Below are positions 12,946-41,130 of a DNA stretch of 46,176 nucleotides, one piece after another. The notes beneath the pieces were generated by a model. It was given only the letters and a program-made list of their open reading frames with translations. It did not search any database and was not told the DNA's origin. The translations under genes were made by a program, and so were the position numbers. The stretch comes from Terriglobales bacterium (GTDB lineage Bacteria; Acidobacteriota; Terriglobia; Terriglobales; SCQP01). The stretch is from the NCBI GenBank assembly GCA_050745425.1, contig JBOGKK010000014.1:1-46176 (forward strand). The letters run 5' to 3'. Numbering within the stretch: the stretch's first letter is position 1; each line of letters begins with the position of its first letter.

Positions 12946-13011
12946 CTGGATCCTTAGACGCCGCAAAAACTACTTTGGCTCGTTCGTGGCCTTGCGGGCG
13001 CACGGCGGCCG

Positions 13012-13106
13012 TGGCGGAAGCGCATCGGAGTCGAACCGATCCAGCGCCCATTGGACGCCGCATTGGTTTTGAAGACCAAGGCAGCCACCCGGCCACATGC
13101 GCTTCC
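13012..13106 (-). tRNA. selC: tRNA-Sec (anticodon UCA), 95 nt with encoded CCA
   Basis: The reverse complement folds as follows. Acceptor stem GGAAGCGC/GCGCTTCC, 8 bp. D stem GTGGCC/GGCTGC, 6 bp, with 4-nt loop GGGT. Anticodon arm TTGGT-CTTCAAA-ACCAA (UCA). Long extra arm of 7 bp with a 5-nt loop. T arm ATCGG-TTCGACT-CCGAT. Discriminator G, then CCA. This is the bacterial 8/5 tRNA-Sec architecture, and the 3' half closely resembles E. coli selC. Confidence 0.9.
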
Positions 13107-13151
13107 GCCTCCATCGTAGCAAGTGGACGGGGGAGTGTCGGTCCCGCCGCT

Positions 13152-15800
13152 ATGATGGAATGCATGGCAACGGGACTGGGCGTGCGTGTGGACCTGAGCG
13201 CCGATCCGGCGGCAGCCGCGGCTGGCCTGGAGCGATTCTGGGCGGCGGCGCCCGCCGCCGTCCGCGCTCTGCTCGCGCGCGACCGCGGCTTGGCCCAGGC
13301 GCTGGTCACGCTACTAGCGGGCAGCGAATTCCTCTCGGAAGCCTTGCAACGTTATCCCGACTGGCTTGTTTGGCTGGCCGCCGAACGCGAACGGCCCGCG
13401 CGCGCCGCCGATGAGTGGGCGGCAGCGCTCGCGGCCTTCACCGCCGGGGCGCCCAAAAGCGACCGCTCGTGTGCGTTGGCACGCTTTAAAAAGCGCGAAT
13501 ACCTGCGCATTGCCGTGCGCGACCTGGACGGCCGCGCCGGCTTGGCCGAAACTACCCGCGAGCTCAGCGATCTGGCCGATGCTGTACTGCAGCAGGCCTA
13601 CGTGTGGTGCTGGAACGAACTGGTGAGCTCGTGGGGTACACCGCAAACGGCCGCGGGCGCCGGCGCCGAACTGGCAGTCATCGCGCTGGGCAAGCTGGGC
13701 GGTGGCGAGTTGAATTACAGCTCTGATATCGATCTCATGTTCGCCTACAGCGGCGAGGGCCGCACCGAGGGTGGGGTTGCCAGCCTGAGCAACGCCGAGT
13801 TTTTTTCCCGCCTTGCCCAAGGCCTGGTGCGCTACGTTTCGCAGGCGAGCGAGGAGGGTGCTGCCTACCGCGTCGATTTGCGGCTGCGCCCGGGAGGACG
13901 CGAAGGCGAGCTGGTGCAGTCGCTGGCGCAATTGCAACGTTATTACCGCACTGAGGCGCGCGAGTGGGAGTTGCAGATGCTGGTGCGGGCTCGGGGCGCC
14001 ACTGGTGCGCGTGAGCTGGCCACTGCGCTGCTGCGCGACGCCGCCGCGCGCATCTATCCGCCGCTGCCGGACGAGGGCGCGATTGCCGATGGCGTGCGCG
14101 CCTCGCGGCAGGCCATCAGCGCCCAATTGCGCCGCCATCGCGCCACCCGCCGCCGCAGCGGCGCCATCGACGTCAAGCTGGATCCTGGCGGTATCCGCGA
14201 TATCGAATTCCTCACGCAATATTGGCAGCGCCTCCACGGCGGCAGCGAACCTTGGGTGCGCAGCGGCCATACCCTGCAGGCGTTGCAGCGCTTGCATGAT
14301 ATGCGCCGCATCCGCGGCGCGGAGTTGCAGACGCTGGCCTCTGCCTACGGACTTTTGCGCCACACCGAGCACCGGCTCCAGTTGCGGCTGGGGCAACAGA
14401 CGCACACACTGCCATCGCGCCCGGAGCGTCTCCAGGCTCTTGCGCGCCAACTGAGCGTACCCGATGCTGCCGCCGCCATTACCGCACAAATGTTCGCCGT
14501 GCGCGCTCTCTACGCCCACTATCTCGAGGGAGCCTCGGCGCGGCCTGCCGGGCCTGAGCCCGCTCGCGTGCGCGACTGGCCTGCGTCCGTGCGCTTCAGC
14601 GCACATGGGATGCGTCAGGCGCAGCGGCTCGATCGCAGCCTGGCCACGTGGCCGGACGGTGCTGCCGCCTGGATGCAATTGCCCGCTCCCGTGCAGCAGC
14701 GCGTGGCCACACTGCTCGAAGCGAGTGACTGGGCCGCGGAGACTTTGATCCGGCGTCCGGCGCTGGCTCAGGCGCTTGCCCGCGGCGCTGCTCCTGCCCC
14801 CGCTCCCGGGACGGATCTGAATCGCAGCATGGTTGCCCTGCGGGTTTGGCAGCAGCAGCAAGCCTTATGTCTGCTCAGCCTTGAGTGGGACGAGCGCCGC
14901 GGCATTGCCGCTACGCTTGCGGCGCACACGCAATTGGCAGAAACAACCTTGCGCGCCGGACTCGACCTGGCCTCGACGGTTGCACCTCCGGCACCGTCGC
15001 TGACGATTCTGGGCCTGGGCCGATTGGGCCTGGGCGAAATCGATCTGCTCTCCGATGTGGATGTGGTTTTTGTGGCTGCTGAAGCCGATCGTGAGGCCGC
15101 GGCCACGCTGGCCGCGCGCTGGATTGAGGTCATGACCGCCTACACCCAGGCAGGAACGCTCTACGCCGTCGATACGCGGCTGCGGCCGGGAGGCCGCGAG
15201 GGTGAGCTGGTGCAGACGCCGGCAAGTATGGTGCGCTACTTCGAGCAGAAAGCCGGCTTGTGGGAGGCGCTCAGTTATCTCAAAGCCCGCGTGACCGCCG
15301 GCGATGCCACTTTGGGCAATGCGGTGCTGCAACAGGTCCACGCTGTCCTGCGCCAGCGCTTTACCGACTCCAGCATGTCGGCCGATTTGCGCAGTTTGCG
15401 TGATCGGATCGAACGCGAGGGCAATCCCGGAACCTGGGGCTTAAAAACCGTTCCTGGCGGATACTACGATGTGGACTTTTTAGTCTCGCATGAACTCCTG
15501 TGCGCCGGCCACTCCGGAACGGGTCCCGCCGGTCTGGCCGGTTGGGCGCAGGCCGCTGCCCACCCGGAGCTGGCCGGGCTGGTGGAGTATTTGCGCGCCG
15601 CCGATCATGCCCTGCGCGTGGGGACGGGTAAGGCCGGCGCCGCCGTCCCTGCCACCGGTGCTGCGGTGGAGCGTGCCTGGACGTGGCTCGATCGCACCCA
15701 TCCGGAACCGCCTCGCGTTGCTGCTGGATCTGGCGCTCCGCTGCAGCGGATTGCTGCTGTGCGCGCACGTATCCGTGAGTTGTATCAAGAGTTGCTATAG
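13152..15800 (+). CDS. glnE: bifunctional glutamine synthetase adenylyltransferase / adenylyl-removing enzyme
   Basis: Two nucleotidyltransferase halves, each with GKLGGGELNYSSDIDLMF / GRLGLGEIDLLSDVDVVF and Y(R/A)VD(L/T)RLRPGGREGELV motifs. The start is set at ATG 13152 because the upstream part of the ORF overlaps selC. Confidence 0.9.
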   Translation: MMECMATGLGVRVDLSADPAAAAAGLERFWAAAPAAVRALLARDRGLAQALVTLLAGSEFLSEALQRYPDWLVWLAAERERPARAADEWAAALAAFTAGAPKSDRSCALARFKKREYLRIAVRDLDGRAGLAETTRELSDLADAVLQQAYVWCWNELVSSWGTPQTAAGAGAELAVIALGKLGGGELNYSSDIDLMFAYSGEGRTEGGVASLSNAEFFSRLAQGLVRYVSQASEEGAAYRVDLRLRPGGREGELVQSLAQLQRYYRTEAREWELQMLVRARGATGARELATALLRDAAARIYPPLPDEGAIADGVRASRQAISAQLRRHRATRRRSGAIDVKLDPGGIRDIEFLTQYWQRLHGGSEPWVRSGHTLQALQRLHDMRRIRGAELQTLASAYGLLRHTEHRLQLRLGQQTHTLPSRPERLQALARQLSVPDAAAAITAQMFAVRALYAHYLEGASARPAGPEPARVRDWPASVRFSAHGMRQAQRLDRSLATWPDGAAAWMQLPAPVQQRVATLLEASDWAAETLIRRPALAQALARGAAPAPAPGTDLNRSMVALRVWQQQQALCLLSLEWDERRGIAATLAAHTQLAETTLRAGLDLASTVAPPAPSLTILGLGRLGLGEIDLLSDVDVVFVAAEADREAAATLAARWIEVMTAYTQAGTLYAVDTRLRPGGREGELVQTPASMVRYFEQKAGLWEALSYLKARVTAGDATLGNAVLQQVHAVLRQRFTDSSMSADLRSLRDRIEREGNPGTWGLKTVPGGYYDVDFLVSHELLCAGHSGTGPAGLAGWAQAAAHPELAGLVEYLRAADHALRVGTGKAGAAVPATGAAVERAWTWLDRTHPEPPRVAAGSGAPLQRIAAVRARIRELYQELL

Positions 15801-18285: not shown

Positions 18286-18807
18286 ATGAACCCCATCGAA
18301 CGTCCCAAAGCTACGACCATGAAAGGCAACCCGCTCACCCTGATAGGCCCCGTGCTCAAGGCCGGCGACAAGCTACCCGAATTCACCCTCGTCGATAATG
18401 GCATCAAGCCGGTTACCGCTGCCGATACCGCGGGTAAGGTCCGCATCTTCAGCGTTGTACCTTCGCTCGATACGCCGGTGTGCGACCTGCAGACCCGCCG
18501 CTTCAACGAAGAAGCCGCCAAATTAGGCGATAAAGTGAAGGTCTACACCGTAAGCGCCGATCTGCCGTTTGCGCAGAAGCGCTGGTGCGGCGCCGCCAAC
18601 GCCACCAACCTCCAGACTCTGTCCGACTACCAAACGGGCTCGTTCGGCAAGGCCACCGGCACCTTCATCAAGGAGCTGTACCTCAACTCGCGCGCCGTCT
18701 TTGTCGTCGATGGCAACGGCACCATCCGCTACGCCGAATACGTGCCCGAAATCGGCGAGCACCCCAAGTACGAGGCGGCACTCGCCGCCGCCCAATCCTT
18801 GCTGTAA
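18286..18807 (+). CDS. tpx: thiol peroxidase (atypical 2-Cys peroxiredoxin)
   Basis: AAAGGAG RBS. VPSLDTPVCDLQTRRFN peroxidatic Cys motif, and the resolving Cys in FAQKRWCGA. 173 aa. Confidence 0.9.
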   Translation: MNPIERPKATTMKGNPLTLIGPVLKAGDKLPEFTLVDNGIKPVTAADTAGKVRIFSVVPSLDTPVCDLQTRRFNEEAAKLGDKVKVYTVSADLPFAQKRWCGAANATNLQTLSDYQTGSFGKATGTFIKELYLNSRAVFVVDGNGTIRYAEYVPEIGEHPKYEAALAAAQSLL

Positions 18808-38330: not shown

Positions 38331-38468
38331 CAGAGTGGCTCAGTCGTGCCATGTTGAAACGGTTCGATTGCGGCCGCTCCGCGGCAGCGGTGTGGGCGGT
38401 ATGCGAGGGCAAGATTGCAGCGCAAAAACGACGCGGCAAAGGAATCGGCCAAGGGAGATAAGCCGGAC

Positions 38469-38924
38469 GTGGTGACTGTGGGCCAACACCAGGCAATTAC
38501 GCTTGAAAGCCGGATCGAAAGCGTCGATCAGGCCGAAGCCGCCGCTGAACGCGTCGCCGCCAATGCCGGCTTCGACGAGAGCGACCGCCATCGTATTGCC
38601 ATGGCGGTACGTGAAATTACCGTCAACGCCGTGATGCACGGCAACGGCTACGACCGCGCCAAGAAGGTCACCATCGACTTCGATCTGTCGCCGGGCGAAC
38701 TCGTCGTCAGCGTCCACGATCAGGGCAGCGGTTTCGACCTCGGGCGCATTTCCGATCCGCTTGCGCCGGACAACCTCCTGCGCCAATCCGGTCGCGGCAT
38801 TTTCCTGGCGCGCGCCTTTATGGATCAGGTGGACGTCGAGCCCAGCAGCAAGGGCACCGCGGTGCGGCTCGTCAAACACCGCCACGCACCCCCCCAGCAC
38901 GCCCCTCATCCAGGTCGTTCATAA
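38469..38924 (+). CDS. anti-sigma-factor-type serine kinase (RsbW/SpoIIAB-like HATPase)
   Basis: GTG start 10 nt after GGGAGA. The N-box is REITVNAVMHGN. G-boxes are HDQGSGFD and SGRGIFLARAFMD. About 151 aa. The start is uncertain, since TTG 38415 is also open. Confidence 0.75.
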   Translation: MVTVGQHQAITLESRIESVDQAEAAAERVAANAGFDESDRHRIAMAVREITVNAVMHGNGYDRAKKVTIDFDLSPGELVVSVHDQGSGFDLGRISDPLAPDNLLRQSGRGIFLARAFMDQVDVEPSSKGTAVRLVKHRHAPPQHAPHPGRS

Positions 38925-38970: not shown

Positions 38971-39348
38971 ATGATTAAAGTGACCTGTCGCCGCATTGAC
39001 TCTGTAACTGTGGTCGACCTCGGCGGCCGCATCACGCTCGGCGAAGGGGCTACCGTGCTGCGCGAGACCATCCGCGACCTGCTCGCCAAGGGCGAAAATC
39101 AGATCCTGCTGAATCTCGGCGATGTCAGCTACATCGACAGCTCAGGTCTTGGCGAGCTCGTTGGTGGTTTCAGCCTGGTGCGCAAGAGCGGCGGCGATCT
39201 AAAGCTGTTGAAGCTGACTCGCAAAGTCCACGATCTTTTGCAGATTACCAAGCTCTACACTGTCTTTGACGTGCAGGATGACGAAGCCCGCGCCATCGCC
39301 ACCTTTGCCGCTCCCGATGCCCCCGCCGAGGCCTCGCGTGCGCATTAG
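38971..39348 (+). CDS. STAS-domain anti-sigma-factor antagonist (RsbV/SpoIIAA-like)
   Basis: The start MIKVTCRRIDSVTVVDLGGRITLGEG is typical. The phosphorylatable Ser context is SYIDSSGLGELV. 125 aa. Confidence 0.8.
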   Translation: MIKVTCRRIDSVTVVDLGGRITLGEGATVLRETIRDLLAKGENQILLNLGDVSYIDSSGLGELVGGFSLVRKSGGDLKLLKLTRKVHDLLQITKLYTVFDVQDDEARAIATFAAPDAPAEASRAH

Positions 39349-39874
39349 CCCTCTGCCGACCGAAGCCACTGCTCCGGAAGTACGCCCACTGCTGGAAGAT
39401 ATCTACACCCAGCGCGGCAATGTCCCCAACATGTTTCGTACCGTGGCGCACCGTCCCGAACTGTTGCGTACGATGCTGGCGCATTTTCGCGTGGTGATGG
39501 GCGAAGGCACGGTGCCGGTCAAGCTCAAGGAACTGCTCGCCGTGCGTGTTTCTCAGATCAATGCCTGCCACTATTGACTGGCCTCGCACTCCGCCTTGGC
39601 AAGGCGGCATGGTTGGAACCAGGAAACGCTCGATCGCCTCGATCAATTCGAGCAGTTGCCATTGCTTGACGAGCCCGCCAAAACCGCCTTGCGCTTCGCC
39701 GAGCGCATGACGCGCGACTCCAATGCGGTCGACGACGGCCTCTATGCCTTGCTCCGCCAGCACTTTGATGAAGCTGCCATTGTCGAGATCGCCGCCGTCG
39801 TCGGCCTTTTCAACTACTTCAATCGCTTCAACAACGTCCTTCAAATGGAACCGACCAGACCCGGCGAGAGGTAA
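39338..39874 (+). CDS. AhpD/carboxymuconolactone-decarboxylase-family protein, predicted selenoprotein (in-frame UGA = Sec at 39575-39577)
   Basis: ORFs 39266-39577 and 39596-39874 share one frame and are separated only by TGA plus 6 codons. The joined translation is one full-length CMD-family protein. The TGA replaces the second Cys of the family motif C-x-x-C-x-x-x-H, reading SQINACHY[U]LASH. A GTG start at 39338 overlaps the STAS gene stop by 11 nt. Confidence 0.8.
39587..39611 (+). promoter_or_regulatory. SECIS-like stem-loop downstream of the in-frame UGA
   Basis: CCGCCTT(39591-97)/AAGGCGG(39601-07) forms a 7-bp stem with a G-containing apical loop GGC. The stem begins 13 nt after the UGA. 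The lower pairs CA/TG lie beyond a 2x2 internal loop. The geometry fits the general bacterial SECIS description. Confidence 0.5.
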
Positions 39875-39883
39875 ACTTTTGGT

Positions 39884-40363
39884 ATGGAGAAAGCTCACTT
39901 TGCCTTGGGCTGCTTTTGGGGTTCCGAAACTGCCTTCCGCCACCTGCCGGGCGTGACCGCAACCACGGTCGGCTATGCGGGAGGGTCCACGGACAACCCG
40001 ACCTATAAGCAGGTCTGCGGCGACCGCACCGGCCATGCCGAAACCGTCGAGGTCGAGTTCGACCCGCACATCGTCAGCTACGAACAGCTCCTGAACGTGT
40101 TCTGGGAAAGCCACGACCCCACCACCCTCAATCGCCAGGGCCCCGATTACGGCAGCCAGTACCGCTCGGCGGTTTTCTATCTGACGCCCGAACAGGAAGC
40201 CGCCGCCCGTGCCTCCAAACAGACGCTGGAGGCCAGCGGTAAACTTAACCGTCCCGTCGTCACCGAAATCACTGCCGCCGGCCCGTTTTACCGCGCCGAA
40301 GAATACCACCAGCAGTACCTCGAGAAAAACGGCATGGCCGCCTGTCATGTGCCATCCAAATGA
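39884..40363 (+). CDS. msrA: peptide-methionine (S)-S-oxide reductase
   Basis: [10 protein letters not shown] catalytic motif, GHAETVEV, and the YHQQYL C-terminal region. 159 aa. Confidence 0.95.
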
Positions 40364-41130
40364 GCCGCCGCTTCGCGCTGGTGACCGGCGCCAGCCGCGG
40401 CATTGGCGCCGCTCTCGCGGCCGCTCTTGCGCGTGAAGGCTACGACTTGATTCTGACCGCGCGCTCGGCGCCGGATCTGGAAACCCAGCGCAGCTACGTG
40501 CATAGTCTGGGCCGCGAAGCCCACCTCATCGTTGCCGATCTGGCTCAGGGCGGCGCCGCGAAGATCCTTGATGCGGTTGCCTCCGCGCAATGGCCGATCA
40601 CCCTGCTGGTCAATAACGCCGGGGTTGGCAGCTTTGGCGAGTTTGCCTCCCTGCCGGGCGGGCACGAATGCGCCCAGGTGCGCCTGAACCTGGAAGCCAC
40701 AGTTGCCCTTACGCATGGCCTGCTTCCCGTCCTCAAGCAGCACGGCGGCGCCATTATCAATGTCGCCTCCACCGCGGCGCTGCAGCCGGTGCCCTACATG
40801 GCGACTTATTCCGCCACCAAGGTTTTTTTGCTGCACTTCAGCCTCGCTCTGCGCGAAGAGCTGCGTTCCTCCGGCGTTCACGTCATGGCGCTCTGCCCGG
40901 GGCCCACCGCCACCAATTTCTTCACCGCTTCGGATACGCCTGTGCCTCCCGGCCTGCAATCTGCCGGCGAGGTTGCCGCCTTGGCCCTGCGCGGCTTGCG
41001 CCGGCAAAAATCCGTGGTCATTTGCTCGCCCCGCGGTGCCGCCCTCGACGCCGTCGAGCGCATGCTGCCGCGCACGCTGGTCACGCGCATTGCTGGTACA
41101 GTGGTGCGGAAGTGGACTCATACGACATAG
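40360..41130 (+). CDS. short-chain dehydrogenase/reductase (SDR) family oxidoreductase
   Basis: ATGA overlap with msrA. TGASRGIG cofactor motif, NNAG, and the catalytic Y-x-x-x-K in YSATKVF. 256 aa. Confidence 0.85.

Follow-up and report, generated by a model that had tools for sequence, protein, structure and literature searches.

A probable selenocysteine codon in an AhpD-like gene of a Terriglobales bacterium

The window considered here is the whole of a 46,176-nucleotide (nt) stretch of DNA from a Terriglobales bacterium (assembly GCA_050745425.1, contig JBOGKK010000014.1), and towards its 3' end lies a small gene of the AhpD/carboxymuconolactone decarboxylase (CMD) family whose reading frame is crossed by one TGA. 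Upstream of this gene, on the same strand, lie RsbW-like and STAS genes, and a gene for methionine sulfoxide reductase A (msrA) follows it; a gene for the selenocysteine-specific tRNA (tRNA-Sec) is found in the window as well (Table 1). Comparative analysis of these sequences indicates that positions 39338–39874 form one gene, and that its TGA very probably encodes selenocysteine (Sec).

Table 1. Features of the window that bear on the AhpD-like gene, in order of position
Feature	Position	Strand	Basis or remark
tRNA-Sec (selC), anticodon UCA	13012..13106	-	ARAGORN; RF01852
Redoxin/AhpC-TSA peroxiredoxin	18286-18807		Intact open reading frame, no in-frame TGA
RsbW-like serine kinase/anti-sigma factor (HATPase_c_2)	38415..38924	+	PF13581, 4.5e-27
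STAS anti-sigma-factor antagonist (RsbV-like)	38971..39348	+	PF01740, 4e-13; gene call in L281
AhpD-like (TIGR01926) coding sequence, predicted selenoprotein	39338..39874	+	178 codons including Sec80, then TAA (39872-39874)
Glu65 codon, acidic residue 12 positions ahead of Cys77	39530..39532	+	Invariant column
Cys77 codon TGC, partner of Sec80 in the C-x-x-U centre	39566..39568	+	Alignment column
UGA predicted to be read as Sec (U80), second redox position of C-x-x-U-x-x-x-H	39575..39577	+	Orthologue column TGA or Cys
Possible extended selenocysteine insertion sequence, lower stem	39578..39622	+	Minimum free energy -17.5 kcal/mol; lower stem discontinuous
His84 codon of C-x-x-U-x-x-x-H	39587..39589	+	Invariant column
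Candidate bacterial selenocysteine insertion sequence, upper stem-loop CCGCCTT-GGC-AAGGCGG, perfect 7 bp	39591..39607	+	13 nt past UGA, 20 nt from UGA to loop
Methionine sulfoxide reductase A (msrA), Cys form GCFWG	39884..40363	+	PF01625, 3.4e-65

The AhpD-like gene and its protein family

Between the GTG at 39338 and the TAA that closes the frame at 39874, translation meets a single internal stop, the TGA at 39575–39577, and the program-made list of open reading frames (ORFs) places the segments on either side of it (39266–39577 and 39596–39874) in a common frame. The GTG has a GAGG 6 nt ahead of it and agrees, in alignment, with homologue N-termini of the form M-x-R-I/L-S. When the two segments are joined, the product of 178 amino acids (aa) is collinear over 97–99% of its length with single-chain homologues of 175–190 aa, and its active-site motif reads C77-H-Y-U80-L-A-S-H84. 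The original prediction had described two ORFs in one frame interrupted by this TGA only, a 178-aa protein of the AhpD/CMD family on read-through, a TGA sitting on the second Cys of C-x-x-C-x-x-x-H, and a gene that standard callers would split; translation, collinearity with full-length homologues, the family profiles given below and the Cys that homologues carry in that column bear these points out. As to the last of them, a 99.9%-identical public contig of 3.3 kb (L281, GCA_050745585.1, a Terriglobales metagenome-assembled genome) has the gene called as separate 79-aa and 92-aa products. A scan of the window for further ORF pairs joined by TGA turned up noise from GC-rich sequence, and no other candidate that has a redox motif.

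For profile scoring, Cys was put in place of U. The joined protein then passes PF02627 (CMD; 9.5e-15), TIGR01926, a 'peroxidase-related enzyme' model (87.5 bits against a curated cutoff of 81.8, with residues 6–173 on profile positions 5–176 of 178), and TIGR00778, the AhpD core domain (53 bits against a cutoff of 27.8). It scores 23.5 bits, over residues 54–98 only, against the cutoff of 191.95 for TIGR00777 (AhpD proper), 80.1 bits against 310 for NF053654 ('YciW-related (seleno)protein') and 46.8 bits against 175 for NF041238 ('AhpD-related CFYUT (seleno)protein'). The gene product is a member of a sister subfamily of AhpD, and not an AhpD orthologue. Near full-length alignments at 1e-14 to 1e-17 were obtained with the PDB entries 2pfx, 2prr and 2oyo, each an 'uncharacterized peroxidase-related protein', whose C-x-x-C aligns opposite C-H-Y-U; since full-length PDB relatives match at 1e-17, the fold is taken to be that of AhpD/CMD. 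The Bmp8 debrominase (PDB 6ohi) also matched, at 1.5e-13.

A search of 5.8 billion proteins found 2688 homologues, the best of which are 175–190-aa single chains at 51–61% identity and 97–99% query coverage; 120 of the 2688 matches were listed, and 30 were aligned (alignment A1). The annotation given to the family is 'uncharacterized peroxidase-related enzyme'. E65, H84 and the FNYFNRFNN tail are invariant among the 30 aligned homologues, and Cys77 is kept in at least 90% of them, and at the orthologous loci described below it is invariant in the TGA forms and in the Cys forms. Opposite the TGA, Cys is found in 29 of the 30 and, among the matches listed, in 114 of 118, with Trp in four JGI entries. 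These four (P0006, P0018, P0022 and P0031) are metagenome proteins on short contigs, and the DNA of P0006 and P0031 (L283, 99–623; L284, 143–670) has TGA at the column that shows Trp. The Trp entries, for which the DNA was checked in two of the four cases, are TGA mistranslated by the pipeline, and are further Sec forms. In the protein database, Sec forms lie hidden as such 'W' variants, and also as split fragments.

Translation of the orthologous TGA as Trp in four entries is what a reassigned code would produce, with UGA as a sense codon under translation tables 4 or 25. UGA, however, is an ordinary stop here, ending 11 of the 31 family-supported genes of the window, which excludes such a code to the point where its probability is negligible; the 'W' entries come from short contigs with TGA in their DNA and reflect a choice of pipeline. 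Acidobacteriota are not known for codes in which UGA has a sense meaning.

That the locus instead comprises two separate genes, a 79-aa ORF ending at the TGA (39577) and a 92-aa ORF beginning at the TTG at 39596, whose products would associate as the halves of a split AhpD-like enzyme, is suggested by the public contig, where both are called as genes, and by TTG being a possible start. The homologues, however, are all single chains running across both halves, and dividing the chain between Tyr79 and Leu81 would break the active-site helix, with loss of the second redox residue. The TTG at 39596 is a Leu codon within the stem of a conserved hairpin, where it is kept for pairing, and no Shine-Dalgarno sequence lies ahead of it. 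Residues 81–86 (LASHSA), which fall between the TGA and the TTG, show conservation at the protein level, with His84 invariant, and this would be unexpected of an intergenic spacer. A pair of genes is therefore highly improbable, and a single gene interrupted by a recoded TGA is preferred.

Conservation of the TGA and of the hairpin behind it

Orthologues were sought by scanning one genome per bacterial species, and the 80 closest loci, at 53–72% identity (best 72%), come from Terriglobia/Acidobacteriota throughout, save for two bins labelled Saccharimonadales and Solirubrobacteraceae. At the Sec column these 80 orthologues carry TGA in 66 cases, TGC in 13 and TGT in one, with no other codon represented. 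Split genes in the orthologues, or a sense codon there other than Cys, had been named at the outset as findings that would speak against Sec; at that column, only TGA (66) or Cys (14) was encountered. The TGA is followed by 94–105 open codons in 65 of the 65 motif-matched TGA loci, with the tail FNYFNRFN[N/D]...MEPT, and the 66th TGA locus (L064), examined separately, aligned in frame through the same tail. Across the 55 gap-free TGA loci, column entropies averaged for the three codon positions are 0.35/0.19/1.11 bits ahead of the TGA and 0.43/0.27/1.15 bits beyond it; the downstream periodicity matches that upstream, and therefore both halves are under the same coding selection. Mean pairwise amino-acid identity over the 94 codons downstream of the TGA is 77%. 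The position of the TGA within the motif and its conservation in 66 species are, together, far beyond chance.

These results bear directly on the simplest alternative, a pseudogene or a sequencing or assembly error in which a Cys codon (TGC or TGT) was mutated to, or misread as, TGA. The change would take one base, and the window comes from a metagenome-assembled lineage in which gene callers give two fragments. The same TGA, however, is present in the 66 independent species-level genomes, in further metagenome contigs and in the independent 99.9%-identical assembly; the 94 codons beyond it keep full coding periodicity at the identity just given, and a conserved, TGA-specific hairpin stands alongside it. 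Because the TGA forms are conserved with coding selection downstream, a pseudogene or an error is removed as an explanation, with hardly any probability left to it.

Further observations concern the immediate codon context. The Tyr codon ahead of the UGA (window 39572–39578) is TAT in all TGA forms, and TAT or TAC in the Cys forms. The base that follows the UGA is C in 65 of the 66 TGA forms, giving the context U-UGA-C (columns 1–4 of alignment A2, which comprises the window and 65 TGA orthologues, gap-free, from the TGA onward). This context may be a requirement for efficient Sec insertion.

Bacterial Sec insertion depends on a selenocysteine insertion sequence (SECIS), and the consensus bacterial model (Zhang & Gladyshev 2005), in its published form, specifies an apical loop of 3–9 nt with G in its first two positions, an upper stem of 4–16 bp, a distance of 16–37 nt from UGA to loop, and a minimum free energy (MFE) at or below -7.5 kcal/mol (PMC13188914). 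The stretch 39570–39640, singled out for a SECIS check in the original prediction, contains a hairpin that lies within all of these bounds, with a 3-nt GGC loop beginning G-G, 7 bp of stem, 20 nt from the UGA and an MFE of -9.5 kcal/mol for the upper hairpin alone. The assignment of an extended lower stem is tentative, its conservation being less clear than that of the upper hairpin.

The hairpin is present in each of the 66 sequences of A2, where standard pairs occupy 99.1% of cells in the stem columns (17–23 with 27–33) and the GGC loop is invariant. At pair 4, 33 distinct sequences have C:G, 24 have U:A and four have U:G, and in none is it unpaired. None of 500 shuffles reached the observed pairing or covariation score, and sliding the 3' partner as a control left 29–59% paired. 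In coding terms, this covariation involves position 2 of an Ala/Val codon at one site and position 3 of an Arg codon at the other. Third-position entropy in the TGA forms falls to 0–0.2 bits in codons +5 to +8 and +10, against 1–2 bits in the flanking codons, and stands at 1.2–1.9 bits at the hairpin codons in the 14 Cys forms. In 13 of these 14 the hairpin is absent, its place being taken by unrelated sequence that encodes a variable peptide.

The remaining Cys form (L019, 3235–3282) has TGC at the Sec column and yet retains the complete hairpin, CCGCCTTGGCAAGGCGG, together with the ALARR peptide; it looks like a recent replacement of Sec by Cys. A related observation concerns the residues that follow the active-site His (codons 85–90, window 39590–39607), which are fixed in the Sec forms as T/S-[A/V]-L-A-R-R and vary freely in the Cys forms, with amino-acid entropies of 0.7–2.1 bits. 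At these codons the SECIS constrains the protein sequence.

tRNA-Sec and the case for selenocysteine insertion

The original prediction had placed a tRNA-Sec gene about 26 kb upstream in the window, and both ARAGORN and Rfam found it there, at a distance of 26.5 kb. Its match to RF01852 runs the full length of the model and scores 75.7 bits (gathering score 47), and it has the anatomy of a tRNA-Sec: the acceptor/T branch is 13 bp long, the D stem has 6 bp and a loop of 4 nt, and the variable arm is long. The six closest relatives carry the same tRNA-Sec, its anticodon and variable stems showing compensatory changes. In the assemblies DATBPS, DAIDIF and DAIDIE, which are species representatives, the tRNA-Sec and a TGA-form gene are both present. 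Scans of wider scope were run with two patterns, of which the broad one returned at least 120 loci across all phyla and was useless for co-occurrence, and the lineage-specific one returned nine loci. Selenoprotein-bearing genomes have been reported in the phylum Acidobacteriota.

The orientation of this tRNA gene is a curiosity of the window. It lies on the strand opposite to glnE (13009–13120), and on the same strand as glnE in the six relatives (L201–L206, ~2230–2380). Its flanks are collinear in all of them, with genes for an M20 peptidase, EamA, a 159-aa ORF, glnE and isocitrate dehydrogenase, and about 100 nt alone are inverted. A short inverted repeat, TCCATCGTAGC/GCTATGATGGA, is found near the tRNA-Sec at 13110–13120 and 13149–13159. 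The inversion may be a real micro-inversion or an assembly artefact.

Against the Sec interpretation stands a group of results that concern the selenium machinery and the hairpin. Scans of the ~40 ORFs in the 46-kb window with NCBIfam and Pfam did not find selA, selB or selD, and tblastn with the E. coli SelA, SelB and SelD proteins returned none in the window or in the fetched Terriglobia loci; the same queries match many tRNA-Sec loci in other phyla, and for this reason they are taken to work. The hairpin of the original prediction is present at 39591–39607, 13 nt past the UGA, but says little when taken by itself: the fold of the 71-nt stretch 39570–39640 gives z = 0.06 against dinucleotide shuffles, a comparable hairpin follows 52 of the 1096 TGA triplets of the window (~5%), and hairpin stability alone was rejected as evidence on these two counts. 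Rfam covariance models, applied to the window at gathering thresholds, returned the tRNA-Sec only, and no SECIS family. Covariation is confined to one of the seven stem pairs, and three pairs show no variation of any kind. As the hairpin lies within coding sequence, constraint on the protein could explain part of its conservation; this is disfavoured because synonymous sites are frozen in the TGA forms and the Cys forms lack the hairpin. It is the comparison across orthologues, and not the single-sequence hairpin, that is decisive for interpreting the element as a probable SECIS.

The same material allows an alternative in which the UGA is read through as a residue other than Sec, by a near-cognate tRNA-Trp or tRNA-Cys or by an allo-tRNA, the hairpin doing no more than slow the ribosome. 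In favour of such read-through are the leakiness of UGA-C as a stop context and the failure to find SelB in the window or the fetched Terriglobia loci. Acidobacteria also possess allo-tRNAs, which resemble tRNA-Sec, have 12-bp branches, and can act as suppressors of nonsense codons (PMC5389517). The tRNA of the window, in contrast, combines the 13-bp branch and the 6-bp D stem with an end-to-end match to RF01852. Moreover, the recoded site is exactly the redox Cys, for which orthologues offer Cys codons as the only alternatives, and the hairpin has the G-G, spacing and size of a bacterial SECIS and is gone where the codon is Cys, as SelB-dependent recoding predicts. Read-through by another tRNA is consequently very improbable, and insertion of Sec is the interpretation followed below.

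Neighbouring genes, predicted mechanism and known systems

The stop of the STAS gene overlaps the GTG start of the AhpD-like gene by 11 nt, and the STAS gene is its probable operon partner. On the other side, msrA begins 9 nt past the stop and overlaps the following SDR gene (40360–41130) by 4 nt; the arrangement suggests a single operon from the RsbW-like gene through to the SDR gene. As the downstream neighbour, msrA is found in the four closest relatives only, and its adjacency fits a role for the selenoprotein in oxidative damage but proves nothing. The peroxiredoxin listed in Table 1 is the sole possible AhpC-type partner in the window, 21 kb away and unlinked.

The link to RsbW and STAS extends well beyond the window. 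The pair lies upstream on the same strand, at no more than 400 nt in 48 of the 80 orthologous loci and at no more than 2 kb in nine more, alike for Sec and Cys forms; still further upstream, nine loci encode a SpoIIE/PP2C phosphatase that has a DksA-type zinc finger. The arrangement can be seen at L016 (990–2946). No sigma factor gene is adjacent to the loci that combine RsbW/STAS with the AhpD-like gene, and a literature search for partner switching linked to AhpD found no paper. A speculative and rather unlikely proposal is that the Terriglobia AhpD-like (seleno)protein serves as a redox-sensing input to, or a regulated output of, the RsbW/STAS(/PP2C) module, occupying the place usual for a sigma factor, and is not a free-standing antioxidant. 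If true, this would mean that a selenol/thiol redox switch is wired into phosphorylation-based signalling. The RsbW/STAS linkage is the only part of the present findings with some potential for novelty.

The best-supported account of the locus is standard bacterial Sec recoding of an AhpD-like (TIGR01926/COG2128) thiol/selenol oxidoreductase. The original prediction of an AhpD/CMD selenoprotein with a C-x-x-U centre is upheld in this form by the TIGR01926 match, by the column of 66 TGA and 14 Cys codons, and by the TGA-specific hairpin. On the anatomy of the locus, a ribosome arriving at the UGA at 39575–39577 would meet the hairpin at 39591–39607, whose GGC loop would serve as the bacterial SECIS. 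The hairpin would bind SelB-GTP with the Sec-tRNA-Sec derived from the gene at 13012–13106, Sec would be inserted in place of termination, and 98 further codons would be translated.

In M. tuberculosis AhpD, the nucleophile is the second motif Cys, and the proton relay consists of the His and of the Glu that stands 12 residues before the first Cys. By homology, Sec80 would occupy the position of that nucleophilic second Cys in C-x-x-C-x-x-x-H, from which it may attack an oxidised substrate, be it a peroxide or a disulfide or sulfenate of a peroxiredoxin or another protein. A selenenyl-sulfide with Cys77 would then form, to be reduced by a thiol system of the cell. The proton relay would consist of His84 and Glu65, the latter being, we presume, equivalent to Glu118 of the M. 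tuberculosis enzyme.

The locus has practical and biological implications. In public data, the window gene and at least 66 Terriglobia orthologues are split, truncated or mistranslated with TGA as Trp, and the selenoproteomes of Acidobacteriota are therefore under-counted; the locus offers a clean, well-controlled example for mending selenoprotein annotation. It also suggests that Sec is kept in a small redox enzyme by a soil lineage that is abundant and largely aerobic. The orthologues constitute a natural experiment, in which Sec forms with a SECIS can be set against Cys forms without one, with the addition of the Cys form that has kept the hairpin (L019).

Among the closest known systems is AhpD of M. 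tuberculosis, an alkylhydroperoxidase that re-reduces AhpC through C130-x-x-C133-x-x-x-H137 and Glu118. The window protein shares with it the TIGR00778 core, the same motif with His at +4, and the Glu 12 residues before the first Cys, and its predicted Sec coincides with the nucleophilic Cys, the second of the motif. It differs in failing the TIGR00777 model to which that enzyme belongs, in having Sec for Cys, and in the lack of an adjacent ahpC.

With the SECIS of the E. coli fdhF type, the hairpin shares its location within coding sequence directly past the UGA and a small loop starting G-G, and the 17-nt minimal hairpin at ~11–13 nt from the UGA presumably matches the minimal E. coli element. 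In contrast, the window hairpin does not resemble the E. coli element in sequence and has no evident bulged U, and its loop measures just 3 nt, or 5 nt with the closing U:A pair open; two orthologues have a 7-nt loop, CAGGCGA/C. NF053654, NF041238 and Bmp8 (6ohi) have the fold and the C-x-x-C/U region in common with the window protein, which scores far below the cutoffs of the two NF models and is not a member of either, and reductive dehalogenation of the Bmp8 type is only remotely possible for it.

The family to which the window gene belongs has a longer history. In their 2005 study of the Sargasso Sea, Zhang et al. added AhpD-like proteins of COG2128 with a CxxU motif to the selenoprotein families known until then, from 27 sequences with predicted SECIS elements (PMC1088965), and AhpD-like selenoproteins were noted in two sequenced genomes in 2006. 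In the GOS survey of 2008, 'AhpD-like 1' was among the most abundant families, with 299 selenoproteins and 902 Cys homologues (PMC2398784). A 2026 review lists 'AhpD-like protein, TIGR01926, CxxU' as a selenoprotein family (PMC13188914), and a 2026 selenoprotein database includes AhpD-like among the families that can be browsed.

The window gene resembles these proteins in belonging to the same TIGR01926, in its predicted Sec at the second position of C-x-x-U, in having widespread Cys homologues, and in the SECIS-like hairpin, with G in a small apical loop, directly past the UGA. Most members published so far come from marine metagenome reads, with a few from genomes of Clostridia and Deltaproteobacteria, whereas the window gene comes from soil Terriglobales; the Sec form is the majority in its clade (66 of the 80 closest species), and its link to RsbW/STAS was not found for the family in the literature searched. 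The locus introduces no new mechanism and no new family: the window gene is an added member of a selenoprotein family known since 2005.

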